DNA of 59,352 bases, filler included, from Dimargaris cristalligena (Eukaryota), in the NCBI GenBank assembly GCA_003614675.1. It is 4 parts of 4 records of this genome, joined end to end, with 100 filler letters (N's around TTAATTAATTAA, not from the genome) between each part and the next. Parts side by side here need not be neighbours in the genome. Positions count along the whole stretch, not along the records: positions 1 to 14,770 come from ML002935.1; 3 more parts are not named here. One strand, written 5' to 3'. Position 1 is the stretch's first letter; each line of letters opens with the position of its first letter. Below are positions 1-44,601 of this stretch, piece after piece. The position numbers were made by a program, and so were the translations under genes. Under the pieces are notes generated by a model. That model ran no database searches. It saw nothing but the letters and a program-made list of their open reading frames with translations, and was not told where the DNA came from.

Positions 1-3000
1 GTAATAAGTATTGCCAATAAATAACAAAACGTCGACGGCATCTATCAACGATAATGGGCAGCAGCAACTATAGCAGATGGACTGTCGAGTTTAGGGAATA
101 CGAATGGGGGAATTCTCAGTTCGCGTTATTAGGGGTGTCTATCGAAGCGCGAGACGGTCTTCCCGAATAAGGTTGTGAAGACTGAGGAGCTCTCACTACA
201 AGGAGGGGACCCTTACCAGTAGTATCTGGCGGGTGGAAATAAGAATCAATCAGCTAAAGAATACCACACTTGGTATAGGTTACAGGGGCTAGTATGCCCC
301 CACTGAAGGTCCACGGGCTCTAAATCACCTTGAGCCCTTCCAGAAATTTGGTACAAAAGAGACGAAAAACCCCGATTATACCAGCGAGCTATACTCCAAG
401 TGGGTTTTCAACGCTTCTATTTTCAAGCACAATGATTGCTATTTGCGTTGTAGTAATAATTTTGTTATGCAGTCATCAAATGCCGCCCAAGGATGCTGTG
501 TATTCATGAAAAAACATTTAGTTATTCAGCATTTTACACGCCCTCCTCAGCACAGCACGGATGATTTAAGATCATACAAATCACACCGTTCTATTATAAT
601 AATAGCCATGGCTGTCTCTGATTTACATCTTGTTTAATATCGAATGATTATTATGGCGGCATGGTGGTGCTCAATTAGATCAACGATGTGGGGAACAGAA
701 CCCCGCCCCCAGTAGTATGGTAAACCTTGGAGCTCTAAAGCCGACAGTTGGTTACAGGTTATACCTGTATTCCCTCCACAAGCTCCACCGTGACATTGCC
801 AGGCTTGTATTTATTTTTGCACCATCAAATAATGGAGCGGCGCCTTCTACAAAAACCATAACCACAACCATACCCATGGCTATAGGTAATGGCTAGCATC
901 CTTTCTATTTAACAATACCGCTCATTTTGAAGGGCTGGGCCATTGCCAAGAAGTAGAACATGCTAGACCACTGGGACTGCCCCAGCTTTCGTATCCCTAT
1001 GGATGTCCTAACTCTCTTACCCGCTGTTTGGTTGACGGTGTCCTGTAGATGCCCTACAGTGTTCGAAGCGTTTGTTTGCAGACCTGACGTAGCGAGGCGG
1101 TGGACCATCACCACCGTGCACTATTGTTTGCCAGACCTGTGGTGGATATTCAAAGGCAAGGACGATGAGTCAGCGGCATTCTATAACCACGGTTTCGGGT
1201 AGAAGTAGTTAAATGAAAATAAACAAGCATGAGTATAGGCTGAGTAGTTCGGGAACCTCCGCCAGGGGAGCGGGATACGAAGGAGGGGAAGGGTGTGTGT
1301 GCGTGTGGATAGTGGATAGTGGATACGCCTTCTAATGGAAACGTTGGGGATGGGTGGCACTAGTATAACGTAGGTGACTCCATCACTGTTATTGAAAAGT
1401 CGGAGAGATCGACGTGCTATTTTTACTTCCGGCGTAACCAGCGGTATGGGCCAAATGACAGAGGCCCCAAACCCCGGCATTTAGAAGTGCGCGGAACCCG
1501 CTCCAATATGAGACGGGCTGAATAAGCGAAATGCCATAACACAACAAGCCAAACCAAAGCAAGCTAACAAAATAAGCCCTTAATGAAGAACAGGGATAGC
1601 TCGGTGCAACCCCAAAATAATGCCGGATAGCTTTGATCCAGTGTCGGCCACGTATTAGGTGGGAGAGGGGGATGCTTGGGTTACCACTGCACCATGGTGA
1701 CGGTGGCCCCAGACCCGTACCATTCCGCCTGTTTTTATTATTATTTCTTTTGTATCGGGAGGCTCGTTTCGACGCTGTTGCTGGGTGGACCAAAGGAAGA
1801 GGGGAGAAAAAGATTTAGGACTCAGTTCGATCTACCACAACATACACACACAGAGAGAGAGAGAACCTAACCACATCCATGCACAGAGACCATCGTCGAC
1901 ACAGTGGAATGGCTCTCTAGTCTCCCATTGCTATGGCCAAATACAGCCAGCTAGCGCTGGCCAGGGAATGGGAGTAAGTGTGGCTACGCTGGGAGCGACT
2001 GGGACGCCTAGTGAAGCAGAATTCGGGTCAGCAACAGTTGGCCACACTGGGAAAGTGTAATCACAACAAATACGCTATATACAGCAGCCAGGAACGGGCA
2101 GTTTGTCGCTTGGCTTGGCTTGATTTGATTTGACTTGACCCATGTTTGAACTCTTCTGGTATCCACCATTGTTCCTAATGAATCCGGGGCGGTTGGATAA
2201 TGCAACGTGTGAAGGTCAGAGACGGTAATTATAGTAGCCAGTGGGGGGGGGGGCTGATCAGTTTTACTCTGGGTTTAGAGTGTTGTTATTATGGTTTTGG
2301 GTCGGCTGAAATGTGCGGAGGGCTACCCAATCGTTGGCTGGGTGAATGATTGTCGGCGGACTTTGAACCAGCTGCCCCACCAACAGAACCATTCATTTCC
2401 CTCCCGTCCAAATATAGGACTAGAAGAGACTCGTCCCAAATCGGTATCGCCAACTACTGCGTCCCATGCAGCGCGGCTAACCCAGAGGGAATATCCGTCC
2501 TATGCCTATTTGAGGAAACTAGCCAACCGGCTCAGATGTAAGCCCCGACCCACGCAGACGAGAGTGTGTGGAGGAGGAATGGGAAAATCGGGGGGGGGGG
2601 GTTCGTTGAAGCACTAGGGCGGAATTCAATAACAACAATCAAGGGAAAGGGTAAGAATGCCCAGGGCGGGGTGTTGTGTTGTATGGTAAAGGGTAAGCCA
2701 ATTGGGGCCATGGGTATAGTTGAAGATTGGGCTGGTTGGTCGATTAGTGCCTGTTGGTGCAACGCGAGTCCTTCTAAGGCCAGCGGTTAACCCTTGCGAC
2801 GTACTAGTACATCCTCTCTCCACCCCCCGGGTCCGCTATTGTGCGGTTGGTAGGCAGCGGGGCTGTCCACAATGGGCTAAGATCGTATCCCTGATACTGG
2901 CAATCCTTGGTTCATTCGGCGGGGGTCAAGGCAAAAAAAAAGAAGGGGGAAGGGGGTTTTCCCGCTTGTAATGACGGGGTTCATATTCTGAACGAACTCC

Positions 3001-5045
3001 CCGATTCAAACACTCGGACGGGAGTGCGATGTCAACGAACATTTAGTGAAGTAAAACCTTTATGACGGGGTAAAGGGCCCAGGCCTTGTCTCATACGACG
3101 GCTATAATTGGGGACGTGCCAAAGGGGAAAGGAATCGGGTCGGGATACACAGAGGGTGAGGGTCTGGTCATAGAGTATCTGGTGCTGGGAGGGGAAATCA
3201 AAACAACTGCCGAGCCCTGGAGTGAATCAGCGGGGTTGGTCATTGAAGTCCCATCTGTACTCTGTCTGTCTTCCAAGCCCCTTCTCCTCAAGCCATTCCT
3301 TTATAATCCCCGGGTCCCGCCCTCGCTCTGCGACGGGGTTTCTTTTCCTTGGACACGACTGATGCGAGGCATATTAACGCCATTCCTAATCTTATTCTTA
3401 TTTCTATTATTATATCTTCATAATCTCACTATTACTCTTATTATTCATATATCCGTATTTCTTCTATTGTTACCTGTTTAATGACTCTCTCCCTAGATTA
3501 ACTCCCGCCTCGTTTACTTTAATTTTATCCCACTGCCGAGCCCGCTTAATTTCCCCTGCTTTTAATGTCCCTTTAGTAACGAACCCCTCCCCCTCTATTC
3601 CCGTAGGACTACTACTGTTAACGCCCATATACCCCGTATTATACTTATCGGTACCTCCCTCTCCGACTTGTCTCCGGTAGATTAGCCCGGTCCACCCTCC
3701 TTCACTTACATTCCCTTTCGGCCGTCTGTCTACCCTCCCCCTTCTCACTAGCTCCGACTAGTCTGGACTCGAATCCACCACTCTTTGGGATTCGCCTGTT
3801 TTCCAACTCATCTCTTGTTTCCTCTCCTCTCCTCTCCTCTCCTTTCCTTTCATTTTTTCCGGTTTTAAACAGGTGGCAGTTTATTCGCCGACCTTGTGCG
3901 TATTACCCCAGCCCAGTGCCCCTCTTGGCCCTTGAGTAACCAACCTGTCTATTCACCTATACTTCTCCACTGGGTATCCCCGTCTCTGACAGTGCCCATA
4001 CTTCAGCCCGTCGAGTCTTTTGTACTTCCGTTTCATCCTTCGGCCCACTCACACTACTTCTACGAAGTGTTGCGACGTTGTTTTATTGATTTATTTCATT
4101 CGTACATTGTTGTCCCCTTGGGTGAGACAGCCCCCCATTCATTTCTATCCATTTTTTTCTTCTATTGCAGGTGCAGCAACCCGTCCCCCTTATCTGCTCA
4201 CCCCCCCCAACCCCAATCTGTGACTTGAGATATATATATATACAGAGTCAAGTGGATCCAACACCTACAGTGAGCAGCATCAGCCCTGTTGTTCATCGTT
4301 TCAATCCGGTCCCTATATTATTACTGGCCTCTGCGGTTTAGCCAACTCCGCCCGAGCCACCCACGTGATTAACTCCAACTTAGTGAGCGGTTCTGTTCCT
4401 GTTTCGAAGCACCTTCTCCTTGCTACTCATTGTGTGTGTCCCAGGCATAGTAACGGTCTCTCCCCACATCTCCAGCGCCGTCCGTATTGCCACAGTGGCT
4501 GTTATTGCATTCGGGATTCAGTCGTGCCGCCACGCTCGGAGGGTCACACCATTTTGCTTCTGACCACTACCGCTTTCCCCCTAATTTTTAAGCTTTTGGC
4601 ACGTTCCCCCGCATACATTCGGCCCTGTGTCTATATGCGCCAACCCCTGACCTACTCCTTATAAAGCTCGCAGACCGCCCCCCCTCTCTCGCCGCCCTTG
4701 CATTTCCCCACATCTGTTTATCCTTCGTTCGGTGCATTCCGTTGAATCGCCAATGTCAATGTGTCACTGAATTATATCCATCTGTCCCCCTCCCCTCGCC
4801 TCGCCTTCATCTCCGCCTATCTTTATCCCTATTATTTATCCCTCTTTCTACGTCTAACCCGTTCATGACTCCTCCTCCTCCTATTTTCTTATTATACTCC
4901 TCTTCCCGCCTCGCTGTCTAATCGTCGTGCTTCTTATATTTCGCGCCCGTTAATTTCCCTCTAGTCTACTCTATCCGACTCTTCCCTACAACTGCTCTTC
5001 CTTCGCCCCGTTCCCTCTCATTTGGATCGGATCATACTGCCCAGC

Positions 5046-6989
5046 ATGGCCGTGTCCACCGCCCAGCTGCTCGAGTCCCATGCATCGACCCACTGCCCGT
5101 TCTCCCCGCTGCCCTCCCGCCCGGCGGAAGCCCCCTGGGCCCCCCGCATTGCTGTGGGGGAGGGTGGTGCCTTGGCCGCATTCCCCAGCGTCTCCCCCAC
5201 CAATGTCTTGTACGATGCCCCTTGGATGAAGCGGCGCTCTTGCCCCCTTCCCGGAATTATCCCCTCTCTGATTGGTCTGGATCGGCCTGGCCATAAGGAG
5301 GCCGCTGCCCTTCCCGTGAGCACTTCCTTCATGTACTCCCCTCCCCGCCTTTATCCCCGCCGGATGACCTCTTCCCTATCCATCGTATCTTCCACTTCCT
5401 TGGCTTCCACCATCGTCGATACTCCGTCTGACTCCGCCGTGTCCGTCTCCAACTTCCATTCCGCTCTCGTGTCTCTCTCCCCGCCCCCCGTTTCCGCCGA
5501 AGCGCACTGGGAGTCGGTGACCCCCAGGTGCTACCCCGTCCCCGCTGCGTCCATTGGTCCCCTTAAGCGCAAACGTCGCTCGTCCAACCAACTCCTCGCC
5601 GTCACCGCCGACACCATGTGCCAGACCCTTTCGTTTTCCTACAGTGATGCTACGGATTTGTCTATTTCCCGACCCTCCCCCACCCGCTATACCGGCCATA
5701 CCCCATCCAAGAAGCGCTCTTTCGAACGGGTTCCCTTCCACCCCCCCGTCCCCTCCCTGCCCCATCCTAACGTGTCTTCCCCATGCTGCTGTGGGCCGGC
5801 CAGTCGATCCCTCCGGACTCTCCTGGACAAGGCCCCCCACCACGGTATTCATTCGCACTTTCTGACCGCCCAGCCCTTCGAATCCATCGCTTCCCCTCAC
5901 TCCGATTACTTTCTCAAAAATCGCCCCCCGGTCTTGGCCTGTGTGGCCTCCTCCTCCTCCACCCTCTCGGTGGATTCCGCGTTTCCCGCTGCCCAGCCCC
6001 AGTCGGTCACCCCTAACCAGACAGGTCTCCACCACACGGTTCGTCTGGGCCTAGTAAATCGCATCATTCAAATCAACGATCACGAAGACCTCCAGTACCA
6101 TTCGGAAACCGTCTACACGGCCATCACCTATATGGATCGCTATTATAGCGCCCTGACCGGTCCCACGGATCCCAAGTCACCCCTAACATTGCCCAGTACC
6201 CTGATCTCCATGTGTTCATCGCGGGCCTACTGCAGCTCCTACGGGGCCACCTTTGACCAACAGCTCATTGCCGTAACCTGTCTCTACTTGGCCGCCAAAT
6301 TCAGCGAAGACTGTTACGTTCCGTCCGCTCGCACTTTTGCCCAGTTTCTAACCATGTACCAGTGCTCCACCAGCGACGTCATTGCCGCCGAAAAACACAT
6401 TTTAGATACCCTCGACTGGAATTTATTCGTCATCACCCCTCACGCCATCGCCGAGGAATTGCTGAAATGCCTGACCTGCAGTTGCAACTGGGGCCGAACG
6501 GCGGAATCTAACCCTAAGCCATATGAAGGGCCCCAGGATTACCCCAGTCCCTGCGAGTCCCAGCCCGACGCCAGCCCATCCCTACAAAATGGCCAAATGT
6601 ATCCCATGGTGCCCGTACCTTCATTACCATCCCCCGCTCCCTGGTCATTGGCATCCGGCGATATCCATGTGGTGTTCCCCAGTCCACGGTGCGCGAGTCC
6701 CCAGGATTTGCAATTCGCCTCGTTATCCCCCACCCTCTACGAAGAATCACTCGAATTTTGGAAGCTAGCGTTGTTGGATCATAGTAATGTGGGTTTATCG
6801 CCTACCCTTATCGCCTTGACTGGACTCCTCAAGGCTTCTCAGTGCATGGGCCATGATTTCCCCATGGCCAGTGCCCTAGAAATTACGAGAGTGTCCTCCA
6901 AGGAGCTCGACAGTTGTCTGCAAACTTTCGAAGATGATTTCTTTTCGGACGAGGACGATGAGGACGATGGTTATCAAATGGATCTCTAA
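5046..6989 (+). CDS. Cyclin-domain protein (intronless, ~647 aa); long Ser/Pro-rich N-terminus, cyclin box, acidic C-terminal tail
   Basis: Long ORF; first ATG at 5046 (the track starts at TTG 5022). Cyclin N-box pattern: RLGLVNRII...ETVYTAITYMDRY...QLIAVTCLYLAAKFSE...AEKHILDTLDWNL..TPH. Subfamily cannot be assigned by eye. Confidence 0.88.
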   Translation: MAVSTAQLLESHASTHCPFSPLPSRPAEAPWAPRIAVGEGGALAAFPSVSPTNVLYDAPWMKRRSCPLPGIIPSLIGLDRPGHKEAAALPVSTSFMYSPPRLYPRRMTSSLSIVSSTSLASTIVDTPSDSAVSVSNFHSALVSLSPPPVSAEAHWESVTPRCYPVPAASIGPLKRKRRSSNQLLAVTADTMCQTLSFSYSDATDLSISRPSPTRYTGHTPSKKRSFERVPFHPPVPSLPHPNVSSPCCCGPASRSLRTLLDKAPHHGIHSHFLTAQPFESIASPHSDYFLKNRPPVLACVASSSSTLSVDSAFPAAQPQSVTPNQTGLHHTVRLGLVNRIIQINDHEDLQYHSETVYTAITYMDRYYSALTGPTDPKSPLTLPSTLISMCSSRAYCSSYGATFDQQLIAVTCLYLAAKFSEDCYVPSARTFAQFLTMYQCSTSDVIAAEKHILDTLDWNLFVITPHAIAEELLKCLTCSCNWGRTAESNPKPYEGPQDYPSPCESQPDASPSLQNGQMYPMVPVPSLPSPAPWSLASGDIHVVFPSPRCASPQDLQFASLSPTLYEESLEFWKLALLDHSNVGLSPTLIALTGLLKASQCMGHDFPMASALEITRVSSKELDSCLQTFEDDFFSDEDDEDDGYQMDL

Positions 6990-7930
6990 TATCAACTCAC
7001 CCACCGCCCACTTCCCCCCTTTCACTTTTCGACTATTACCTCTCCTACTGCTCGTTTGGTCTCATTTGTCTAGTCTTCTCTTTTCTCTCTATCCTCCGCT
7101 TTGGTTAAGGTTTCTGCTGTGTCTGTTGATGTTGTGATTAGCATTGTAGTCTTGTGTTTGTAGTTGTAAACTAAATGAAGAAATTATGTGCCTACACTTA
7201 CTACAAGATCCCTTGAAAATCGATGTATTGAATGCTCCCCTCTTCGTAGCGGGGTAGGATATCAGAAGAAGTCAATCACTTCAAGCCGTTTGGCTATTCT
7301 TCCAAAAAATACAATCAATTGGGATATACACCAGTTGAAGGTGCCCTTATTCTGATATCATGGATGGTAAGGGGGAATATAGTTTAGAGTATCTACCGAA
7401 TAGCATCACCTGTTATATATTCATATACGCCTAAGACCCTGCTGGCGACCACAACGCCATTAGTGTTGATTGTCCCGCTTAATTTACATATTCTCTCATT
7501 TTCCTGTTCAGTTGGTGTCAAAATGTCAAACGTTTATTTATTCCAAGGGTCTTTTACCATTCTAAATAGTTCAGTTAAGTCAAAGACCTTCTGGGAAACA
7601 TTATATTGATCAGTTCAATGGGTGTGCTGGGTCCCAAAGTACACCTTTACTAATAGCATCAGGCCAGACTAAACTATAAAATGGCCGGTTTAACCATCTA
7701 CACAAATGGCTTGGGGCTACACCAGTTTATAATTAAAGCTAACTAGTATTTGGCCGATCCACGCAAGCATGCATCATATATGTTTTACAGGTAATTCGTT
7801 ACCTGCAGCCTAGTGCCTTATTCATAATGGAACATCATTTGAATATTCCCTGGCTAACCTAAATGTAAAGAATATCTTATAAATATATTCAGTTATTAGT
7901 AGTAGGGTATTCCAATAGTATGCCTATTAC

Positions 7931-8077
7931 ACATGGGTGAAGTGCAGCTCGGCTGTATAAGGTTTTAACTAATATATGTATATGGGAAAATCAGTGGGAT
8001 GTTTATTTTCAACCAGTAGTATTTGCCTCATCAAATGGGTTTTTCGTTATACAGCCTTGTTGAACTACTCCCACATG
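7931..8077. mobile_element. MITE-like element, copy 1 (~145 bp, imperfect ~30-bp terminal inverted repeats)
   Basis: Left end catgggtgaagtgcagctcggctgtataa and right end ttatacagccttgttgaactactcccacatg are approximate reverse complements. The interior aligns with 22348-22479. Confidence 0.65.
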
Positions 8078-8199
8078 CTATCTACTATTGATCCACCAAG
8101 AGCCCGAGTAGGTAGAGCCCTATCAGCTATAGTACTGTGGGAACCCTTAACTGACATTTGCTACTCAATAGGTAAAAGTGAGATGAATAGTGACAGTTG

Positions 8200-10950
8200 C
8201 ACATTTACTATTGAGGGGGCGAATATATAAGGGTTTAGCAGATTAACTAGATATACTATAGGCAAAGAAACTGACAGGATGTGACCTAGGCAGGGTAGTA
8301 ATGCACTCCGATAATACAATGGGGTTGCCCTGATAGGAACATTGATGAATATTAAAAATGATGAAAGAGACTAGTCTGTGGCTGTTAGTATTTAGAGGAA
8401 TCTGATGGAGACAGGAATCTTCAGAGCCACGCATAAATGTACAGTGTGGAGTCCAATAATAGCCACTGGAGCATGTATTAGATGATCCCTATGGTAGCAG
8501 GTATTGCCATGGGAAGGTGGTATGTTATAATCAGGTCTAATATAGGTGAGCCTTGCTCAAAGGCCTTGTCCGAACTCCATTGAATAACTCAATACAACAT
8601 TCAGGACTTCAGTCTACTTTGCCTATTTTTTTCATCTAACTTAATAAAAACTACATCTAAGCATTTTTCTGTACTACTTGGGGCTCTGTTTCTTCTAACA
8701 TCCTTTTAGAATTGTGCCAGGAAGATCTTGTGTTAACCCCTCAATTTATAAATCCTGTAGATATGACTTGTGTAACCCTAAGGACCATCTAGAGTCACAA
8801 TGGGTAGCTGGCTCCTGAATAATTAATCACATTGGGCTTGGCTGTTGATAGTCCCCTGAATTGTGATTCTATTAGTGTGATTATCCCAGCTGACACAGTT
8901 AAGTATTATAGGCATTAGATAATATTTTACTTGGACCAGACCACTTATTGAACCAAAGATTTAATAATAGAAATATCAATTTTACCTCTTCTTGTAAGTT
9001 GAGGACAGGTATATTCCATTGTAATGGTTTTATTTTGCAAAATAGGAGTGGGTTAACAAAGTTCAGAGAGTGAACAAAAGGTAAATTGCTAATTGATAGG
9101 GGACCTAGGTTAAAGTGAGCTCTAGTATTATCTGATATTAAAAAGATACTGGGAAAAAAGGGGCTGGTGTATAAGTATATTGACCAGACTAAGAGAGAAA
9201 AGCACACTGGATTATAAATTGCACACTATTACAGGGAAAACCAGTAAAAAATGATGTAAATTGGCCCCCTCTGGATTAAATATCCCAGCATTACTAGTAA
9301 AAAAATATGGACTGAAAGGTGGCTATATTCAATTAGGTTATGGAGGCTAATTTAGATCTACTGGGAAATTAATGTTATAGTGTTTAACTATATATATAAT
9401 ATTAGATAATACAGTGAAAAAAGAAAAATAATGGAATTAGTCTAAATAATAATGTATTAAACTCTGTAGTATAACTGTTACCTAGTTAACCACTCCTAGT
9501 CTGTTAAGAGTCCCAAGGATAGGCTTCTAACAGTAGGTGGGGCTTAGACTCAGCCAAGTAGGCTACTAGTATTAGGTACAGGGCTTGGTACTAACTAATA
9601 AAGGCTAAGTATAGGTATATACAAGGGATATGCAGTAAACATACTTACTAGTCAGTATGAGGGGGAATGAGTATATGTTGGGGTTAGTGATTGTGGGGAT
9701 CCCACTTCCCTTATCACTGTGTGCAGTGTTCAAAGGTCCTTTGATCATGACACTCGTCTGCACTCTTGCTCTGTCATCTGAAGACATAGTAAAAAAATAG
9801 AAGTGGCTTTATTTAAAGAATACAAGAGTGGTAGTAATAGTGATATTTCCTTAAGAATGGATGATGATGAATTATCATTTTTCTTCAAAACAGCAGGATA
9901 TTGCTGGGTTTATGTATCCCCTGGTCTCTCTATCCACCCATTGAACAAACTAATAACATATTATTTCTTGATTTGTCCATCTGCTGAGAAACTTTTCCTT
10001 TAACAAAGGACAATTCCTTTCATCTTAGGATCAGTTGCAATATTCATCAAATAAAAATATAATAACTTATTTGAATAAACCAAAATAATAAAATATATAT
10101 TATAATAAACAAGTACATGATTTCATAATGCTGACTTCAATTAACTTGTCATTATTAGCTCATTATCAACACAAATTTGGAATCAGATAACCATTTTGTT
10201 TACTATTGGCCAGATTATCTGTGTGTGCCATTACTATCAATTCCCATGGCACTATATATATATAGAGTTTATTGGGGTAAACTAGGGGGTAAGAATAAGC
10301 TAAGGAATTTAGCTAGTCCCAATAGGGCCTAGTTATATATATGTAGGGATAACTCCAGAGGAAGGTCCCAAGGTAATGATACTACTAAGGATATAGGACA
10401 AGTAAATAGGCTAACTAGATAGCCATTAGTATTTAGAAGACTCTGATGGTAACTGGAAAAGTCTAATAGGTTAGCACTTGAGTGATAAGTGTAAATAGGT
10501 GAAGTCCAGAAGGGGAAACATTATATATTAAGGAATGACCCCATAGTACTGGGGGTGACTATATAAAAGCTAATATGGCACTATAAGACCGAATATAGTT
10601 GGACATCTAAGCCAGCCAGATTAAGGTGGATTAGATGGTCTGATAAGGACGAAATTCAACCACAGTGTACAAGGATATAAAGGATATAAAGGAAGATAAT
10701 TGTGACATTTACTGATATCTTGTCTTCTTGCCCAAAGGGTTATTCACATTAACAAAACAGTCCAGCCCTTCTGCATACTACTGCAATAATACCCAATCAA
10801 TTAGAAATACATGTCTTCAATACTAGCATCCAGCTAAAAGGGTTTGCTGATATATTGACTTATGCTCCCCTCCGTGAACTAAGAGGGCCCCTAATATCAT
10901 TCCCACTTATTATTAGTATACTCTAAAATTTTCCTCCATATTACAATAAT
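8200..10950. repeat. AT-rich, CpG-depleted degenerate repeat / probable transposon relic with an internal diverged duplication
   Basis: About one CG dinucleotide seen in 8580-10580 (at 9755). ~8385-8550 resembles ~10415-10600 (ttagtatttagaggaatctgatgg vs ttagtatttagaagactctgatgg). Only short, stop-interrupted reading frames. Confidence 0.5.
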
Positions 10951-11842
10951 GTAACCAACCTGAGCATTTCCCCATATTGTTGCACAGTGTCTTAACTACC
11001 CATTGTGGCCATTTTCAAACCCTAATATATTCAAGTCACTTTCTATTATTCTTCCAACTGTAGCGTCTTCGAGTGAACTGGTGGCTATTTGCGCCATTGC
11101 CAACAAACCCATACTTTCATTTGGCCAACATAGTTGAGGGCCTAGCCATTTAATGACCAATAAAAATCTCCCAGGCAAAATGCTTTAGGGAATCGGACGG
11201 GTTTAGTAGGATACCATGCATTGGTCTGGCCATGTCTATGACTCGCTCGCCTAGGCCATACTTTCACGCGAATGGATATTTGGTCAGCCAATTATTTCCC
11301 AGACTCGATAAAAAGAGGACATGTCAATTTTGAGAGGGTATGAGCGCACATCGGTTTTAAGTGTGGCTAAGTTGCACTAGTGGTAGAGTAAGCTGGCCAA
11401 GCCATACACTGCTTTTATAGGTGAAAACATAATAGCATATTAGTCTAAAAACACCAAAAATAATCAATATTACATAGGCTGAATAAAGTAAAATGCTGCT
11501 AAAAATACCAATTAAACGGTAAATAAAGCATTTCTAGATGTTACTGGCGCCTACTTCTACGCTTGTAAGCCGTACATATTTATTAAAACCTGTAAGTTAC
11601 AGCAAAGAGTATTTGACAATCATTAGCCATAAATTTTTTAAGGAGGAGGCAGTAGCAGGAAGGGAGAAAACGAAGCAAGTGTCCTTATGAAGAAGGGTAG
11701 TAGGGAGGCGAGCAATCATGCCATTTATAGGGCATAACTAAGGGTAGAAGAAAAATGAAAAGAAGGTACCATGGAAGTATACCCTAGGGCAAACGCTAAA
11801 GTCTGACCAAAGTCGGAGCATTAATTTCAGGTGGGAACCCTA

Positions 11843-13381
11843 CTAGAGTGAAGGATTACGACGTCTCACCAAGTTCAACTGATTATCGAGAATATCAGGC
11901 TGTAGCCAAAGGGACTCATCCGCCTTGAATCCTTCCTTGCTGAGCAATCTCTCGGCGGCCGGGTGGCGGACTCGAATAGCCCACTTGAGTTTGCCATTGG
12001 CGTCCCGGTGCGGGTATACGAGCCCATTGGCTGTGCAAAAATTAAGACGCAGGACCTGCCTATCAGTGTGTGGATTAATAGCCAAGCACTTGGTCTCGGC
12101 ATTTTGGAATCCCAGTTTACCGCCATATCCACAGCCATACTCAAATTGTTCAGCCATTTTATCCCCTACGCCGGTGTAGGACTCGTCGAATTCCCAACGC
12201 AACACAGTCGCGCATGCCTGAAACTCCGGGAAACGCAACTTCTCGAAAGCCATCATCGTTTCCACTAGCTCCTTCAACTGATTGAATTGGTTTGTAGTGG
12301 CAAGGGCCGCACTGACACTGGCCATCATTTGCTGTATGGTTCTGGATTTGGTGTGGAATATCCACACATACGGGAAATGGTTGCCAAAGACCTTGAGTGA
12401 TTCTGTATACCGATATTTCTTAATGCTCTCGAATTTAACGTTGGGTAGAGATGAGAACGCTAACTTCAGGTTCACTTTGATAATATCGTTAACGGGCAAC
12501 GACAATAATGAATGTAATACGGGGAATATGATACGCCTTTGATCGTTGTTTAACCCTGTATAGTCCAGATACGCCCATTCCGCCTTGATGTTGTTTTGAG
12601 GGTTTTCTTTTGAGGGGGAAGATTGAGCCCACAGGATCATAGACCTCTTGACTTGGTTCTTTACCATTACCCACCTTATAACCACCACTGTGCTGCCAGG
12701 CGGTGGCCATGAGTGCATCCATCGGCTGCAATGGAAAGAGAGTTTGCAAATCTTTCAAAGTGATCGGACCTTTTGTTGATATTACAGGGTTGATGACTTT
12801 AATAAGCTTCTCATCCTGGATAATACGGTAGCAGATAAATACGAGCAACATATAATGTTTAGAAAGTGGGATGCAGTAATGGGTAGGAGGATGGGGGCAG
12901 TCCCCAAAACTCTCTGGCCGTGTGTGTACCAATCGATAACACATCATTAAAGCAGAGAACCTAACTTAATTAATGGCTGGCGAACGGGAAGCGGTTAGTG
13001 GACGATTGGGGACGAAACTGGCGGACTTACTTTAAAAATATCCAAACTATCTCTATCGTCCTGTATGGCTTTTTTTAATCTATGATCCACTTCGGAAAAG
13101 CGAAAACGGGCATCTACTGGAAAACTGCGCAAAATTATTTGTAAAATTTCATTGGGGAGGGATGCCAACGTAGTGGGGAGTTTGTTTTGGGAAGAACTCT
13201 GGGCTTGCACCCCGCCAATTAATGGTTTACCGTTTTCCTCGCTGTTAGGTGGGTGTTCAACAATGTCATTTGGGTTTACACCGCCTACTGCTTTGCTCTC
13301 ATCCATGGGTCGGGGGAGACTGGATACAGTATAGGTCAGGGCTAAGCCCAGCCAAATTGAGGAAGTGAGGTACGGCTTCAT
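11843..13381 (-). CDS. Secreted protein with N-terminal signal peptide and F-box motif (~410 aa); exons 13381-13031, 12815-12675, 12583-11843
   Basis: ATG 13381 begins MKPYLTSSIWLGLALTYTVSS/LP (hydrophobic leader). F-box-like LASLPNEILQIILRSFPVDARFRFSEVDHRLKKAI. Donors GTAAGT (13030) and GTGGGT (12674), acceptors CAG and AAG, join three track ORFs in phase 0 (1233 nt, in frame). The second acceptor is the least certain. Confidence 0.7.
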
Positions 13382-14770
13382 TCTCAAGGATCCCAGTGGT
13401 CAGTGGAAGGAATAGGAAATGGACTGAAGATATAAAGGGGGGCAACAATAAGATACCATCTTCTGTAGAATAATGTAGTGGTACACAAAAGAAGTTCAAG
13501 TATAGGATAATATTAACTGGAGCCTGGTAAATATGGAGAACCTATGCCAGAAACAAGGCAATGGAGAAGGTGGTCAGTATATATAATATAGTCGGACGTG
13601 GAGAGGAAGTACAGGTGGGCAGAGAGGTATGGGCAGGGAGGAAAGTGCCCGAGCTGGATAAGGGAAGATGTGGAATTTTCCATGCATTGCCCAACACCCT
13701 TTTTTATTAATTCCAAGGTATACAAAAATATTGCCCATTGTTTTAATTACAGTTGAGGTGTTCCACCAAAAGAGGACGGTGGATGCGTCCTAGGCCATGC
13801 CACTGGATGGTGTCATCTATACCCCCTGTTAGCAACTGCCCTTCTACTAATCAAATACCACAGATGCGGCAAAGGTGTAGCTAACAAGGCTTGGCGGGCA
13901 TAACTGGTGTAAACCCGGCGTCATGAACTATTATATTGCCGCCTTTTCAACTTGGTCTCCCGATTAGTCGTGTAACTATTCTTTTGATGCACAGTTGCTG
14001 CACAATAGTCCCCAACCATTCACCTTGATATGGGAGCAATTCAATGCATCTATAAATAATTATGATCAAAATGTAAATAGAAAAGGCAGAAACACTATTT
14101 TTAATTAGCCCAGTTAATTGCCTTTAACGGAATTTTTGCTTTACAATGGATATATGCCTTTTCCATACTCGCATGGGGGGAGTAATTGGGAACTAATGGC
14201 TAAGGGTTAGGGAAAATGCATTTGATTGGAAACGGCCCGGGATTCCTAATACCAGTAAAAAATTTTAACGTATGGACACAATACGCGTTAGGCGTAGCAT
14301 TATTTTGAAATATAATAGTTAAAAAATATATGGCCTCGTGGCTAAGTATATTTTGAATATGAGAGCAAGCAGCAGCTAGGCGCTCCTAAAAGCAAAAGTT
14401 GAATTATATAGAAATAAAGCGTTAGATCTTATAGAAAATAGGATACTGATTTAAACCATGAAGATTACATGCTGCTTGGGGACGTGGCTAAACTGTAGTA
14501 TTTTTCAGCCACTTGAATAGAAAAGGGTTGGTTCATGTAATCCTTTTAGGTGGGCTAGGATTAGTTGGCACCGGTTTCAGAATAATTATCAAATAGGCCG
14601 TTCATAATAAAAGTAGAACAAATTTAGACACATATGGGATGGTGCTGGATTCATCAAATTAACACACATAGTGGTTATTGTTGATTGAATCTATAAATTA
14701 GCCAGTACTGACATTTTCCTTATTTATACACCTATCTAAATATATAAATATATATTACGTTTCTAAGGAA

Positions 14771-14870
14771 NNNNNNNNNNNNNNNNNNNNNNNNNNNNNN
14801 NNNNNNNNNNNNNNTTAATTAATTAANNNNNNNNNNNNNNNNNNNNNNNNNNNNNNNNNNNNNNNNNNNN
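14771..14870. other. Assembly gap spacer (N run with central TTAATTAATTAA)
   Basis: 100-nt block, identical in design to the other two gaps. Confidence 0.97.
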
Positions 14871-15726
14871 CAGCAACTCAATAATAGTCATTTGGTTATT
14901 TCGTTAAACTGTGACCTACCTTTTACCTCCTCGGACTGTAGAATTTATCTATTTATAGGTGCTTAGAGGCCTCGACCTCAGGTAGCCGATACGGAAGACT
15001 GTGGGTCGCATAGTTAGGATGGGTGGGTATGAGTGATACAAGCTGCTATTTATCCCAGATCCTAAGCTGGCGATAATAGTAGGGAAGGTTCCGGTGAACT
15101 CTACGTGTCCCAACTGGTGCTACAGAGAGAACTGAGGGTATGCTAGAATGTAGACCATCGTCACCACCAACGCTCAGAGGTGGATGGATGTTACCACCTA
15201 GAATTGAGGGGGAATGATAGCAGTGCTGTATGGTTTTCGGTAGATTTGTTTCGAAACTGCCGTAAAGTGTCTGAAGTAGTCTCTTTCAAAGGTGAGGCTA
15301 GTTCCTCCACCACAAAGTCCACAGTATCGCCAATTCAAGATAGTGTTGCTGGTAGTGGGAGATTATATGGTTGAAAAGTAGCCCTTCTAAATAGGCGATG
15401 ATTTGCCGGTTCGCTTAAACCCCCAAGTATTCACTGTTTTCATTCGTTTTGAGCAACAATAAACAGAGTAGCTGCCGTGGTTTCAGGAGAACGAGAAGGG
15501 GGTGAGGGTTGAAGTTGGTTAAGGACTGACCACCTCCAAAGCAAGACCAGGCTCCTTTCACTTTGGACCTATTCTACGCTGCTTAACACTTTGACAGCCG
15601 AGGCTTGGTTAACCCCACATTGTATTGGCCATTTTAATTCCTATTTGTACTTTACACCTCCGTTCCTCCATTCGACTTCATTCGCTCTTGTGTTTCCTCT
15701 CCTCTTCCCTATTTTATTTTTTTACC

Positions 15727-16675
15727 ATGAACGTCTTCAACACCCGTTTCCTCTCGTCCTTCCGGGCTCCCCGCACCGTAGTGGACACCGGGGCTCACCA
15801 AAACCCGCTCGGCGCGGGGCCCGGCTCTAAGCAATATCAACTCCGCCGCTTCGCCGAAGCCACTCTGGGGTCTAGCAATCTGCGTTTGGCCGTGTTGTTA
15901 CCGGAGGGCGAGGACGTCTGCGAATGGGTGGCACTCCATATTGTGGACTTTTACAACCAAATCAATATGATCTACGCCGCCATCGCTGACCAATGTACCC
16001 ACGAGGCTTGCAGCGTCATGTCCGCCGGCCCCAAGTAAGTTACTCGCTCGACCAGGGCCTTCTTGTTAACAGGGCAAGCACACCCCCCTCTTCTCAACCT
16101 CAGTTGGGTAGTCCGGTTGTTATTGTTGTTATACCTATATGTATCCTTGTGTATTTTTTTATGAGCAATACAGAGCAAGCCCCCCTTCCCCCTATAGATA
16201 GGCGTACTTATCACTAACCCATCCCCTCTCCCTGCCTTTTATTTGGTTTTCACAATGGGCTTACTGCCTTACTTGAATGTTGGACCCGACCAGATACGAA
16301 TACCACTGGAGCGACGGTCAACAATACAAAAAGCCGGTGCGGGTTTCGGCCCCTCAATACATCAGCCTCCTCATGGATTGGGCTCAGAAACAAATATCCA
16401 ACGAGGACACCTTCCCCACGCAACCCGGCCGGCCGTTTCCCCTCAATTTTCTGACGGCCACCGCGGCCTTAATTTTCCGCCGCTTCCTGCGGGTCTACGC
16501 GCACATCTACCACCACCACTATACCACCTGTCGGCAGCGCAGTCTGGAACCTTTGCTGAACACGGCGTTCAAACACTTCACCTGCTTTGCCATTCACTTC
16601 AACCTAATTCAACCCAAGGACTTTGCTCCCGTTAGTGATATCATGGTTTCATTGGGCGTCACCACTACGTCTTAA
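15727..16675 (+). CDS. MOB1: MOB1-family kinase activator (229 aa); exons 15727-16034, 16294-16675
   Basis: AEATLGSSNLRLAVLLPEGEDVCEWVALHIVDFYNQINMIY...CTHEACSVMSAGPK|YEYHW...FRRFLRVYAHIYHHH...LNTAFKHF. Phase-2 GTAAGT...CAG intron restores the frame. Confidence 0.92.
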
Positions 16676-17928
16676 AAAAAAAGTCGCGGGGATATCATCA
16701 TTTCCGGTGAGGAGGGAGGGTCACACACTCACACTCCTATGGTTTTCTATAATACACGCCATGATGTATTTTTACTTTACTCTGCCATTATTTACCCAAA
16801 CGAAGCTTCGGTGGTCGCGATTATTCGTAACCAGACAACCGGTTAAATGCGTTGGCGGACCTGTTGAATCATTGCTTTACCCAGGCATTGCCAGCAGTCT
16901 CTAATCGTATCAGATTTATAGTTGATCCAAGAACAAAGTCAGCTGTGTTGATCTGATGTGTCTCTTTGAATACATGGTGGCCAAATAATAACTTTAATAA
17001 GCGATCCAGTGGAATATTAATTGTCGGCTCCTTTCTATACCGGTTTTAATAATAATAAAAAAGCTCACGACTGTTTGACAATAAATCATCAACCTATCTG
17101 GCGGTAGTGGACCATTGACTGTCGGTTTTAACGGACCTGTCAAGATTTCCTCGTAAAAGCCCGCCATCCATTCCGATAGTGGGTGGCCTTTTCCATTTAT
17201 TGTCGTCCCCTTGGCCGCTCATATCTACTACTCTTGGCCCAAATCACAGGCAAATCCGTCCTTTCGGATATCCGGTTCACTATCCCCGAGTTGGATGCAT
17301 TGGACAAAGAGACTGCACCCTTTCCTTGAACAGAGCAATAGTTAGTTATTCTAAAGCCATGTGTTGTAATAATCACCCCACTCGGGATTTAAAATTACGC
17401 TTTACAATAGATGGGTTGGTTTCATCCCTTTTCGAGGCTTGTATGATTCTATAATAATGGCTTTTAATGGGGCAGTGCTGATGATGAACATACAGGGATA
17501 TCAAAAATAAAATAGTGGCTAAAAGTACTGGGAATAAATAATAATAATAGTCCACGTGGCTCTTCTAAGGAACCAAAAATGGGATGGTGAAGCATCTTCT
17601 TTACACGTGTACATAGGCGGATTGGACTTGGATTGGGATGGGATGGGATGTGGGATAGCACGAGTGTAGCAGCGACATGTAATGGCCACTCGATTATCGA
17701 CCATTCGAATTATTCAAGGGATTTAGCCACATGTTTTCAGATTCTGAGCTGTAAGTTAGAGCAGAGGGGGGAACTAATGGTAGAATACCCTGTATAACAA
17801 GTTCTACGTATTAGATTATATATATATATATATAGTAATATCAATTTCAGTGTGATTCCGCCTTCACATTACACGAGTCCCACTCCCACTCACAATGCCC
17901 AGGAACCTCATCCCTTTACTGAGTGCTT

Positions 17929-19883
17929 TTAATTGATCACGACGGACCATTCGTGAGGGATATCACCGTACTGGATACCCATGATGGTGTCGTTAAGCCG
18001 CTTGGTCAAGGGACCGGCTTGGCTGTTGGGGTTGGAAGGGTCCAGAGGAACATTGATATCCTTGCCAAGGTAGAGGATACGCTTGACGGGAGACACGACA
18101 GCGGCAGTACCCGCACCGAAGATTTCGAGAAGGCGACCTTCATTGGCAGCGCTGGCAATTTGGGCCATCTCAATCTTGCCTTCAGAGACGTCAATGTCCA
18201 GCTCGTCGCGCCACGAGCGGGTCAGAGCCAGAATCGAGTCACGGGTCACACCGGGCAGGATGGTGCCATCAAGGGCCGGAGTGATAAGTTCGCGGCGACC
18301 GGCCTTGTTGATCCAGAAGACAAACAGGTTCATGGTACCCACTTCCATGAGTTCGTGCTTTTCACCAATAAGCCACAGAACCTGTTGGCAGCCCAGCTTG
18401 GCAGCCTCCCGAGCGGGTTTGATGGTCGGGGCGTAGTTGGCGCCTAATTTGGCATCACCCACGCCACCGGGCCAGGCGCGGACCTCGCGCACATTGGCGT
18501 AGAGGGAGATGGCCTTGAAGCCGGTGGCGTAGTAGGGGCCGACGGGACTGCAGATGGTGTAGAGCAGGGCGCGGTTGGAGGCGCGGACACCGAGGCATTC
18601 TTCGGTGCCGATCAGGGTCGGGCGAATGTACAGGGAGTAGCCATACTCATCAGGGACCCAGCGCTGGTCGACGCGCAGCAGTTCCTTGATGCACTCAATG
18701 TACTGGGCACCATCGAAAGTGGGTAGCGAGACACGGGGAGCGGAATTGTTCATCCGCTTCATGTTCATGTCAGGGCGGAAGAGGCGGATGCAGCCCTGCT
18801 TGTCCTTGTAGGCCTTCATACCTTCGAAGCACTCGAAGGCATAGTGGAACACCACGGCACTGGGAGCCAGCTGCAAGGGCCCATAGGGCTTGATCTCGGG
18901 GGCGGACCAACCGTATCCCTCGACCCACTCAACCTGGAGCATATGGTCGGAGAAGGTCTGGCCAAAGACCAATTCCTGGTTGGGCTGAAGGGGCTTCAGC
19001 TTGGGAGCCAGAGCCTTGGTTAAACGGGCGGCCTAACGAACGAGAGGGCACATGGGGATGGATATGTGGGAGGAGGGGGAGAGGAAAGAGCGATATGGGG
19101 GTTAGTGTACTGAATAGCTGTAGGATAGCCCTTTCCCTTCTAAAAATAGCAGAGAGCCGATCCCAGCGAACCAAAGAGGGAGTCGGCCGGATGACGGAGG
19201 CGATCCAATATACCCAATATAGCAGAGATAACCACAGAGGGTTGGGGGAGTACAATGTATCTGCAGGCAATGTGAGGGTTAGAGGACCCACGCTGAGGGA
19301 GAGAGGGGGAGGGGTCGTTGGGACGGGTGCGCCCCTCTCCGTGTGACTTGGGATCCCCCAGCCTACATGGGACTGCTCTATCTACGGGGCTTCTGCTCAA
19401 ATAAGGATCCTACTACTCGTCATGGCTGTAAATATACCATGAAAAATGCTCCGCTCGAGACAATATCAAGTGACTGCTCCTCCGGGCAGGCCTTAGACAA
19501 TAACTCTGAGAATATTGGCCACTTGCGCACCTGGGCAGTATAAATTGAAAATATATAGACGGTCGTACAACCAGGTTAAAAAGCGCACATTTAAGTCACA
19601 GCACTACACTTACAGAAACTTCGTGGTACTCAGGGGTGGCCTCTTCGTAGGTAGGCTCCTCAGCCGGTTGCACAGCGGGGCTGGCCGAGCTGTAGTTGGG
19701 GTTGGTGATAGTCATGGCGCGCTGGGGGGCGGGGGAGAGCGAAAAAGAACGCCGAAGAAAGTGGGCGCTGGCTAGTCTAGGAGCTGAAGAGGCACGGGGT
19801 GAGCTGCGGGTAGGAAGAGTAGCAGCAGCAGTGACGAGGGAGGGTAGCTTAAAAAGACGGGCGGTGGAGATAAGGGAAGCCAT
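17929..19883 (-). CDS. BAT1: Branched-chain amino acid aminotransferase (PLP fold IV) with mitochondrial-type presequence; exons 19883-19614 and 19032-17929 (~457 aa; extra small exons possible)
   Basis: LVFGQTFSDHML, FEGMKAY, YIRPTLIG, PLP-lysine GDAKLGANY, EVGTMN, ILPGVTRDS. The Arg/Ser/Ala-rich exon 1 ends at GTAAGT, in phase 0 with the TAG acceptor at 19033. Confidence 0.9.
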
Positions 19884-29639: not shown

Positions 29640-29739
29640 NNNNNNNNNNNNNNNNNNNNNNNNNNNNNNNNNNNNNNNNNNNNTTAATTAATTAANNNNN
29701 NNNNNNNNNNNNNNNNNNNNNNNNNNNNNNNNNNNNNNN
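29640..29739. other. Assembly gap spacer; hides the 3' ends of two converging genes
   Basis: N run with TTAATTAATTAA; open reading frames run into it from both sides. Confidence 0.97.
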
Positions 29740-44501: not shown

Positions 44502-44601
44502 NNNNNNNNNNNNNNNNNNNNNNNNNNNNNNNNNNNNNNNNNNNNTTAATTAATTAANNNNNNNNNNNNNNNNNNNNNNNNNNNNNNNNNNNNNNNNNNN
44601 N
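44502..44601. other. Assembly gap spacer
   Basis: N run with TTAATTAATTAA. Confidence 0.97.

Follow-up and report, generated by a model that had tools for sequence, protein, structure and literature searches.

We found that a gene on the minus strand of the Dimargaris cristalligena window (the whole stretch of 59,352 nucleotides analysed), spanning 11843..13381 with its ATG at 13381-13379 and its stop codon at 11845-11843, appears to belong to a family of about 18 paralogous loci found only in this species, whose members probably share a cleavable leader of the signal-peptide type, a disordered polar linker, an F-box, and a family-specific helical domain of ~245 aa. We tentatively adopt, at somewhat less than an even chance, the reading that the locus is a real three-exon gene of this single-species family and that its product acts via a host SCF. 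According to two reports (PMC6850671, PMC9866270), D. cristalligena is a biotrophic mycoparasite, that is, a parasite of other fungi, and the parasitic lifestyle foreseen by the original prediction is therefore correct. In the proposed mechanism, the leader would direct the protein into the secretory pathway of the parasite, the protein would be released at the host interface and then taken up into the cytoplasm of a mucoralean host, the F-box would bind the host Skp1-Cullin there, and the helical domain would pick host proteins for ubiquitination. The leader and the F-box, taken with the parasitic lifestyle, lead us to infer that the protein is delivered to the host and recruits its Skp1; these features fit a host-hijacking effector family, which is a credible candidate rather than a proven one. 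That at least 11 secreted F-box adaptors enter mucoralean hyphae, dock on the host Skp1-Cullin, and mark host proteins for degradation via a previously unseen helical fold seems to us rather unlikely. The effector interpretation proposed earlier stands in part: it gains from the leader and F-box being a family trait, from the leader being the most conserved segment, and from the parasitic lifestyle, and it is weakened by the window copy itself, in which the F-box is sub-threshold, the leader is weakly hydrophobic, and the exon 2/3 join is possibly a frameshift.

A phmmer search with the C-terminal 246 aa as query gave 20 matches in 1,835,955,588 representative proteins, several of which span query residues 1-242. 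Eighteen of these matches are D. cristalligena loci, and every one of the 18 relatives that carry a name comes from Dimargaris. The parasite holds an expanded set of paralogues (18 loci among 1.84 billion representatives) that is restricted to its lineage. A profile search with alignment A1 recovered only 2 Dimargaris proteins and no further relatives among the 8000 candidates scored, and a single-protein query of metagenome contigs gave 253 pattern matches with no relatives. The architecture, inferred at first from one gene, proved to be a conserved family trait, since the same secretion-type leader opens 11 of the 18 loci and F-box evidence (Pfam E<=1 or the UniProt name 'F-box domain-containing protein') was obtained for 8 of these 11 leader-bearing members. 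Many paralogues lie on very short contigs (2.7-8 kb), which we counted for the effector reading.

Three collinear exons are supported by the paralogue alignment. Exon 1 (13031..13381, minus strand; 117 aa) is one unbroken ORF for leader, disordered linker, and F-box-like motif, with a GTAAGT donor following at 13030; inspection of the ORF placed an in-frame TGA (13402-13400) six codons upstream of the ATG, which has A at -3. Because the leader and F-box are encoded in one exon with a stop six codons before the ATG, they are co-translated. In tblastn, paralogue residues 1 to about 111-131 matched exon 1 with E values of 1e-8 to 5e-12. Intron 1 (12816..13030, minus strand; 215 nt, GTAAGT...CAG) separates two segments that are contiguous in paralogue P0003, where the end of exon 1 (...SLDIFK) and the start of exon 2 (DEKLIKV...) correspond to adjoining residues with no gap. 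Exon 2 (12665..12815, minus strand) encodes a conserved segment with LFPLQPMDALMATAW and was matched in tblastn by residues 113-174 of P0003 and 1-56 of P0029, and exon 3 with the stop codon (11843..12606, minus strand) encodes the family-specific, mostly helical C-terminal domain with a conserved core at 12583-11846. A shorter intron 1 of 54 nt (13030-12977), which has perfect signals and a CACTAAC branch site, was rejected, as it leads to a stop after 9 codons and loses the paralogue collinearity. The original prediction had named a start at the downstream Met (MDESK) as grounds against the leader; this Met was rejected as a start, as it is not conserved among the paralogues and is therefore not a family-wide alternative start.

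Beyond the intron at 13030-12816, the minimum that the gene requires, a second frame change is needed near 12664-12607, and the exon 2/3 join is explained by a 58-nt intron or else by a frameshift of 1 nt where homopolymers are frequent. Excision of the candidate intron 2 (12607..12664, minus strand; 58 nt, GTAAAG...AAAAG) puts both frames in phase; a 91-nt alternative (12674-12584) is in frame, yet it was rejected, deleting residues that resemble paralogue P0002. With a frameshift at this join and a leader weakened by relaxed constraint, the window copy would be a decaying pseudogene, a reading that concerns this locus only and is compatible with the others, and to which we assign a fairly low probability. 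Paralogue similarity in the exon 2 frame extends up to 12639 and that in the exon 3 frame runs from 12619 onward, therefore leaving no space for an intron between them; moreover, the donor of the candidate intron, GTAAAG, is unusual, and its acceptor is AAG, the stretch at the join is homopolymer-rich, and few of the 11 leaders are less hydrophobic than that of the window copy. The counterpart in another assembly, P0001, is 99% identical, and its public model, only 201 aa long with the first Met within exon 2, leaves out ~260 nt of conserved coding sequence, which suggests that the same frame break may be present in that assembly. Against decay, the 58-nt intron (12664-12607) restores the frame exactly, and its sequence can be read as holding a pyrimidine tract and, as a branch-like site, CTCAAT; the similarity past the donor is weak, with 4 identities in the final 9 residues. 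Furthermore, exon 1 (117 codons) and exon 3 (253 codons) are intact ORFs, the conserved motifs of the C-terminal domain are retained in the window copy, and only 2 of the 186 aligned residues distinguish the two strains (the window locus vs P0001). The public P0001 gene model was itself rejected, as it omits conserved sequence that 10 of the 20 homologues align from query residue 1 or 2. Several paralogue public models are likewise N-terminally truncated, with 7 truncated models in the family, and because of these and the 201-aa model, secretome surveys based on public models would miss the family.

The putative signal-peptide-like leader (residues 1-21; 13319..13381, minus strand) would be cleaved after V-S-S. 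In agreement with the hydrophobic leader ending VSS/LP that was originally described, K2 is followed by uncharged residues at 3-23, and V-S-S precedes L22-P23. Assessed by heuristic criteria and not by SignalP, the window leader has a Sec-type layout, namely, a charged n-region, an h-region of ~7-15 residues, and small neutral residues at -3 and -1, and the same layout was seen in all 11 leaders. The common sequence, M[KR]xY..TLLGLAL..[SG] before the predicted cleavage site and [RH]PxP after it, opens 11 of the 18 loci including the window copy; as read from the alignment, -1 is S or G and -3 is A, V, or T throughout (11/11), and positive charge is N-terminal, position 2 being K or R in 10 leaders of the 11 and P0017 having R4. 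By segment, mean pairwise identity is highest in the leader (52%), followed by the C-terminal domain (30%), the F-box (25%), and the linker (14%). The core of the window leader, IWLGLAL, gives a best 8-residue Kyte-Doolittle window of 1.96 and a best 19-residue window of 1.07, so that the stretch is too weakly hydrophobic and not long enough for a membrane span. It lies near the bottom of the 11 in hydrophobicity, its 8-residue value being undercut only by that of P0009 (1.90) and its 12-residue value (1.43) being the lowest. Under the reading of host entry, candidate signals for processing or uptake would be the conserved [RH]PxP N-terminus and, ~20 residues past the predicted cleavage site, a D-x-[VA]-E-[HY]-x-P patch that is semi-conserved.

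These properties of the leader bear on the alternative that the family consists of endogenous F-box proteins for the parasite's own SCF, with the N-terminal segment acting as a tether or being non-secretory and with nothing delivered to the host. It is well established that F-box proteins normally work inside the producing cell and that eukaryotes often show F-box expansions confined to one lineage and bearing private C-terminal domains. However, the hydrophobic core of ~8-12 residues is short for a membrane span: across the 11 leaders, the best 8-residue window is 1.9-2.6, and over the first 40 residues no 19-residue window exceeds 1.71 (best values 0.96-1.71), which is signal-peptide-like rather than span-like. 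By the positive-inside rule, charge on the N-terminal flank places the remainder of the protein in the lumen, and the C-terminal part would therefore be lumenal, not cytosolic, given the K or R at position 2 or R4 noted above. Moreover, a mere tether would be expected neither to hold the -3/-1 cleavage pattern in every one of the 11 members nor to be the best-conserved segment. We consider an endogenous role unlikely.

The polar low-complexity linker (residues 22-71; 13169..13318, minus strand) agrees with its earlier description, being polar over residues about 26-70 and disordered in AlphaFold2 (pLDDT <50 for residues 30-70). It is followed by the F-box-like motif (residues 72-109; 13055..13168, minus strand), for which the claim of an F-box was borne out in position and fell short in score: the LPNEIL... 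segment matched both F-box profiles, PF00646 at residues 73-98 (profile positions 2-27 of 43; E 0.0077) and PF12937 (F-box-like) at residues 72-109 (positions 1-38 of 47; E 0.033), with 16.6 and 14.4 bits that lie under the curated cut-offs of 20.5 and 24.3 bits, respectively. In paralogue P0003, residues 73-107 exceed the PF00646 cut-off (25 bits, E 1.7e-5), and the window motif is homologous to this threshold-passing F-box, to which it can be aligned in every column (in tblastn, P0003 residues 1-111 matched 13381-13043 with E 1e-8). The isolated exon 1 was modelled by AlphaFold2 from a shallow alignment of 11 sequences and with no binding partner, giving helices at residues 77-86 and 89-116 (pLDDT ~80); at this alignment depth, the model consists of one helix plus one long helix with no clear three-helix F-box, and its comparison with the PDB retrieved no F-box chain (best Z 4.3, best Foldseek E 5.9). 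A search of exon 1 against longer proteins returned none at E<=0.01 among 1020 candidates, a result that carries no information, as the query has 117 aa and the database 5.8 billion entries.

After the F-box, the original prediction had noted ~290 aa with no known motif; indeed, roughly 300 aa follow it with no Pfam match at E<=1, and the C-terminal 303-aa frame showed neither an LRR nor any other Pfam family at this threshold. The AlphaFold2 model of the C-terminal domain is mostly helical (pLDDT 83.5, pTM 0.81), and such a confident fold is as would be expected of a substrate-binding module. Foldseek against the PDB gave 0 matches at E<=0.001, and the wide VIA-align search gave 0 at Z>=8, the best match (Z 6.7) being to generic helical repeats. 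A lead from the ESM Atlas to bacterial Rep_trans clusters (score 0.95) was dropped because the recognition value (1441) is below the benchmark of 2300, there is no Pfam match, and the model is mostly helical. Thirteen members have both cysteines of a conserved pair, C151/C166, and 4 lack both; if it forms a disulfide, the pair would point to an extracellular protein more readily than to one at work in the host cytosol.

Such a disulfide is among the points for another alternative, namely, that the family is secreted and has no SCF role, its members being extracellular, cell-wall, or lumenal proteins in which LPxEI is a weak F-box look-alike that never meets Skp1. The Pfam F-box cut-off is reached by only 1 of the 11 leader-bearing members, and P0004, P0017, P0016, and P0031 gave no Pfam F-box match; there was no structural F-box match, and a profile of the 8 aligned F-box segments run against PDB sequences found no significant F-box protein (best E 0.13). 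In addition, the X-Pro-X-Pro after the predicted cleavage site resembles the N-termini trimmed by dipeptidyl aminopeptidase in the secretory pathway. On the other hand, Pfam F-box-type matches occur at the same place in 6 of the 11 members, in register with the N-terminal end of the profile (positions 1-5 onward), the 8 aligned segments all have the L, P, and E of LPxE, one member is above the curated threshold, and UniProt automatic annotation independently labels 6 loci 'F-box domain-containing protein'. The cysteine pattern can be accounted for by a single split into two subfamilies. Secretion with no SCF role is in our view improbable.

Known F-box proteins that reach a host offer comparisons. 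Hessian fly SSGP-71 members carry secretion signals, and Agrobacterium VirF and Legionella AnkB are F-box effectors reaching the host in addition to the GALA proteins of Ralstonia. One report (PMC4617103) states that host Skp proteins are bound by SSGP-71 members, which are proposed to be mimics of host F-box proteins, and that Ralstonia solanacearum GALA/RipG proteins carry an F-box into host cells and bind host SKP1-like proteins, the F-box of RipG7 being essential for virulence. SSGP-71 of Mayetiola destructor is, like the Dimargaris family, large, specific to its lineage, and found in a eukaryotic parasite, with an N-terminal F-box followed by a target-binding domain. It differs in having leucine-rich repeats in place of a private helical domain with no Pfam or LRR match and a plant host in place of a fungal one, and it shows no sequence relationship to the Dimargaris family, for which Skp binding is only predicted. 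GALA, VirF, and AnkB, unlike the Dimargaris proteins, are bacterial, are injected by type III or IV secretion with no known N-terminal Sec-type signal peptide, and have C-terminal LRR or ankyrin repeats, whereas the Dimargaris domain has no LRR match. Neither an LRR domain nor sequence homology to the SSGP-71 or GALA families was found; by analogy, the Dimargaris protein may work like these effectors, yet it is not a member of their families. According to a further report, Rhizophagus clarus NLS_30765 is a predicted-secretome protein with an F-box-like match (PF12937, 2.8e-07) and a proposed interference with host signalling (PMC4746824). It differs as a single candidate in a plant symbiont rather than an expanded family with a conserved leader, and no homology to it was seen. 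Ordinary cytosolic fungal F-box proteins (PF00646/PF12937) likewise have a near-N-terminal LPxE F-box followed by a protein-interaction domain, and one Dimargaris paralogue is above the Pfam threshold; in contrast, they are not known to have a secretion-type leader, which in the Dimargaris family is present in 11 of the 18 loci as the best-conserved part.

If true, action on a host SCF would be the first instance of a fungus that hijacks the SCF ubiquitin ligase of another fungus and the first fungal counterpart to the SSGP-71 strategy of the Hessian fly. To our knowledge, effectors of fungus-on-fungus biotrophy in early-diverging fungi are almost unexplored, and F-box-secreting eukaryotic parasites are known mainly from one insect family. 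A family combining a leader, an F-box, and a novel domain would provide a testable handle on how a haustorial mycoparasite may reprogram its host via the host ubiquitin system, and the C-terminal domain is a new candidate substrate-recognition fold. Within a literature search having subscription journals and supplements outside its scope, we found no paper tying Dimargaris cristalligena to F-box proteins and none with the phrase 'secreted F-box'.

Regarding the DNA setting, the earlier picture of a gene alone in AT-rich DNA holds on the 3' side, where the 4.84-kb flank (GC 0.373) contains a single ORF of >=90 aa that is unrelated to the gene. The 5' side amounts to 1.39 kb and then meets an N44-TTAATTAATTAA-N44 joint, the window being four pieces joined with artificial linkers, and because the flank stops at this artificial joint, the gene has no true neighbour past 14770. 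The repeat relics mentioned in the same picture did not materialize: the search for tandem repeats gave 0, and positions 7000-17000 contain only three short two-copy direct repeats of 20-33 nt. The GC3 of the gene is 0.44-0.57 vs 0.63-0.73 in housekeeping ORFs elsewhere in the window, a difference that we counted for the effector reading.

In the window gene, which lies on the minus strand, a start codon at 13381–13379, preceded by A at −3 and, six codons before it, by an in-frame TGA, opens an exon of 117 codons (13381–13031, minus) that extends to a GTAAGT donor at 13030. As originally predicted, the gene contains a leader, a polar linker, and an LPNEIL... motif, and this single exon encodes all three in that order; the leader comprises residues 1–21, with K2, an uncharged run, and V-S-S preceding L22-P23. 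A long downstream open reading frame (ORF) occupies 12754–11843 (minus, stop included), and tblastn searches of paralogues against the window revealed three collinear blocks (13381–13031, 12824–12639, and 12619–11846). Intron 1 (13030–12816, minus, 215 nt) is well supported by this sequence comparison, because exon 1 runs on into exon 2 along contiguous residues of the paralogue P0003 with no gap in the alignment; a 54-nt alternative (13030–12977) with textbook signals was rejected for its stop after nine codons. At the join of exons 2 and 3, in a homopolymer-rich stretch, weak paralogue similarity runs in the exon 2 frame up to 12639 and again in the exon 3 frame from 12619, as it would across a 1-nt frameshift in a pseudogene; removal of a candidate intron 2 (12664–12607, minus, 58 nt, GTAAAG...AAAAG) restores the frame and results in a 421-aa protein. 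Independently of the functional readings considered below, it is rather unlikely that this particular copy is a pseudogene.

An exhaustive phmmer search of 1,835,955,588 representative proteins gave 20 matches at E ≤ 0.001, of which 14 reach E ≤ 1e-10 and 2 reach E ≤ 1e-30. Of the 20, 18 belong to Dimargaris cristalligena and come from two assemblies. They include P0001, annotated as a 'hypothetical protein' of 201 aa, which represents the window gene in the other assembly and matches the C-terminal 246 aa (12583–11846) with 99% identity. The unnamed metagenome proteins P0014 and P0015, matching via only 13 and 8 short stretches, were regarded as spurious, and neither a profile search nor a metagenome contig scan gained further family members. 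Complete N-termini were modeled at ten loci (P0003, P0004, P0024, P0009, P0025, P0016, P0017, P0030, P0031, and P0019), and the remaining 7 models start within or past the exon 2 equivalent, several of them at an internal Met of the conserved ...PMDA[IL]MA.AW motif, as does the public model of P0001. Among the public models P0001, P0002, P0005, and P0010, several begin at the internal exon 2 Met and have neither leader nor F-box. N-terminal truncation by gene predictors thus looks systematic in the public models of this family.

The window protein and all ten paralogues with complete N-termini open with M[KR]xY..TLLGLAL..[SG] followed by [RH]PxP, that is, the leader motif occurs at 11 of the 18 loci. 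The original observation stands and gains weight when seen across the family. On sequence grounds this count is a lower bound, because the upstream exon missing from the truncated P0001 model is present in the window. Position −1 is S or G and position −3 is A, V, or T in 11/11 leaders, as read from the alignment, and the best Kyte-Doolittle window scores 1.90–2.61 at a length of 8 residues and, in the first 40 residues, 0.96–1.71 at a length of 19. The leader of the window gene ranks near the bottom of the 11: its 8-residue window (1.96) exceeds only that of P0009 (1.90), and its 12-residue window (1.43) is the lowest of all. From the hydropathy windows, the −3/−1 residues, and the charge of the N-terminal flank, the leaders are predicted by the von Heijne and positive-inside rules, both established knowledge, to be laid out as a cleavable signal peptide and not as a membrane anchor. 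With leaders of this kind, an endogenous F-box family was judged quite unlikely. These otherwise divergent proteins resemble one another most in the leader, where pairwise identity averages 52% (range 28–76%, 55 pairs) against 14% in the linker, 25% in the F-box segment, and 30% in the C-terminal domain, which points to the strongest constraint on the leader. Within 13220–13318 (minus, residues about 22–55) and in the paralogues of alignment A2, two short patches are conserved against the 14% background of the linker, one being [RH]PxP immediately past the predicted cleavage site and the other a D-x-[VA]-E-[HY]-x-P-like stretch about 20 residues later, as read from the alignment. These patches may be processing or targeting signals.

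The F-box-like motif of the window protein was partly confirmed by profile searches: it falls at the start of both Pfam F-box models, but its scores lie under both curated cut-offs (PF00646, residues 73–98, profile positions 2–27 of 43, 16.6 bits, cut-off 20.5; PF12937, residues 72–109, profile positions 1–38 of 47, 14.4 bits, cut-off 24.3). P0003 passes the Pfam threshold (25 bits, E 1.7e-5, residues 73–107), sub-threshold matches occur at the homologous position in P0024, P0009, P0025, and P0030, and no Pfam F-box match was found in P0004, P0017, P0016, and P0031. Thus, 6/11 leader-bearing members, the window included, have F-box-type matches (P0019 scanned at E ≤ 0.1 only); six loci are named 'F-box domain-containing protein' in UniProt, and either kind of evidence is available for 8/11 leader-bearing members. 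All eight aligned segments keep the L, P, and E of the LPxE core. Searches for independent support were unsuccessful: a profile of these eight segments gave no significant F-box protein among PDB sequences (best E 0.13). AlphaFold2 modeled exon 1 alone with a mean pLDDT of 57.6, rising to about 80 over residues 72–116, which contain a helix (77–86) and a long helix (89–116), and fold searches with this model matched nothing (best Z 4.3; best Foldseek E 5.9). By these scores the window copy by itself does not qualify as an F-box; because of its homology to P0003, the motif probably represents an F-box that has diverged, and is a candidate Skp1 binder. That the family is secreted and its F-box a non-functional look-alike, a reading that the unmatched fold favours and the invariant core speaks against, appears improbable.

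In agreement with the original view that the C-terminal part has no recognized motif, the downstream frame (12754–11843) gave no Pfam match at E ≤ 1. Prediction of the C-terminal domain from a 19-sequence family alignment (pLDDT 83.5, pTM 0.81) gave a mostly helical model flanked by short strands. No PDB structure reached E ≤ 0.001 in Foldseek (best 0.62) or Z ≥ 8 in an exhaustive VIA-align search, where the best match was 8qx8_A (Z 6.7, rmsd 3.3, 96 residues aligned); judged from the model, the matches are generic helical-repeat proteins within the stated background of the tool. Bacterial Rep_trans clusters, a lead from the ESM Atlas, were discarded for low recognition, absence of a Pfam signal, and the helical model. 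C151 and C166 (246-aa query numbering) occur together in 13 members and are jointly missing from 4, a pattern compatible with a disulfide and equally with a single subfamily split.

Dimargaritales, the order of D. cristalligena, are described in two papers as (biotrophic) mycoparasites (PMC6850671; PMC9866270). By its sequences, a biotrophic mycoparasite has here a private, diverged family that keeps a secretion-type leader, a putative F-box, and a novel helical domain together. The most economical functional reading, by analogy, is the secreted adaptor originally proposed: the proteins would be secreted and taken up by the host, where they would bind host Skp1 and recruit host SCF ligases to a target. 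We infer secretion, uptake, Skp1 binding, and target alike, and hold this reading only tentatively. An analogous mode of action is suggested by Hessian fly SSGP-71 and bacterial GALA/RipG effectors (PMC4617103); since the window family has no LRR and no homology to them, membership in these known F-box effector families is excluded, and what they are proposed to share is the mode of action alone. The single predicted fungal precedent is from Rhizophagus clarus (PMC4746824). In the literature covered by the searches, supplementary tables of the genome papers (possible secretome lists) aside, no paper links D. cristalligena with F-box proteins and none uses the phrase 'secreted F-box'; neither 'F-box' nor 'signal peptide' occurs in the text of PMC9866270.

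The window is made up of four pieces, each about 14.7 kb long, separated by artificial joints of the form N44-TTAATTAATTAA-N44 (14771–14870, 29640–29739, and 44502–44601); genes lying on separate pieces are not genuine neighbours, and any ORF entering a joint is cut. The 4.84 kb 3' of the window gene are ORF-poor with a GC of 0.373. The 'repeat relics' previously placed beside the gene were not supported, as no tandem repeats were found and the direct repeats numbered just three, each short and in two copies. GC3 is 0.44–0.57 in the three exons of the window gene, 0.63–0.73 in the cyclin, aminotransferase, DNMT, and PIN ORFs, and 0.40 in an NRPS-like ORF. The cyclin N-terminal domain ORF (4965–6989, plus) shares the piece 1–14770 with the window gene. 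The NRPS-like enzyme (45073–57138, minus) is a single ORF of 4021 codons that carries 2 AMP-binding, 3 condensation, and 2 PP-binding stretches and ends in an NAD_binding_4 reductase domain, in keeping with the abundance of secondary-metabolite genes reported for D. cristalligena (PMC9866270). A DNMT1-type cytosine methyltransferase gene (25593–29687, plus; RFD, BAH, and C-5 DNA methylase domains) is spread over at least two ORFs and cut by the joint at 29640. A class IV aminotransferase (17929–19032, minus), an SH3-domain protein (30423–30971, minus), and a PIN_6 ribonuclease-domain protein (42303–43259, plus) are ordinary genes. On another piece than the window gene, two ORFs at 15613–16675 (plus) resemble, by eye from their translations, parts of a Mob1/phocein-type gene.
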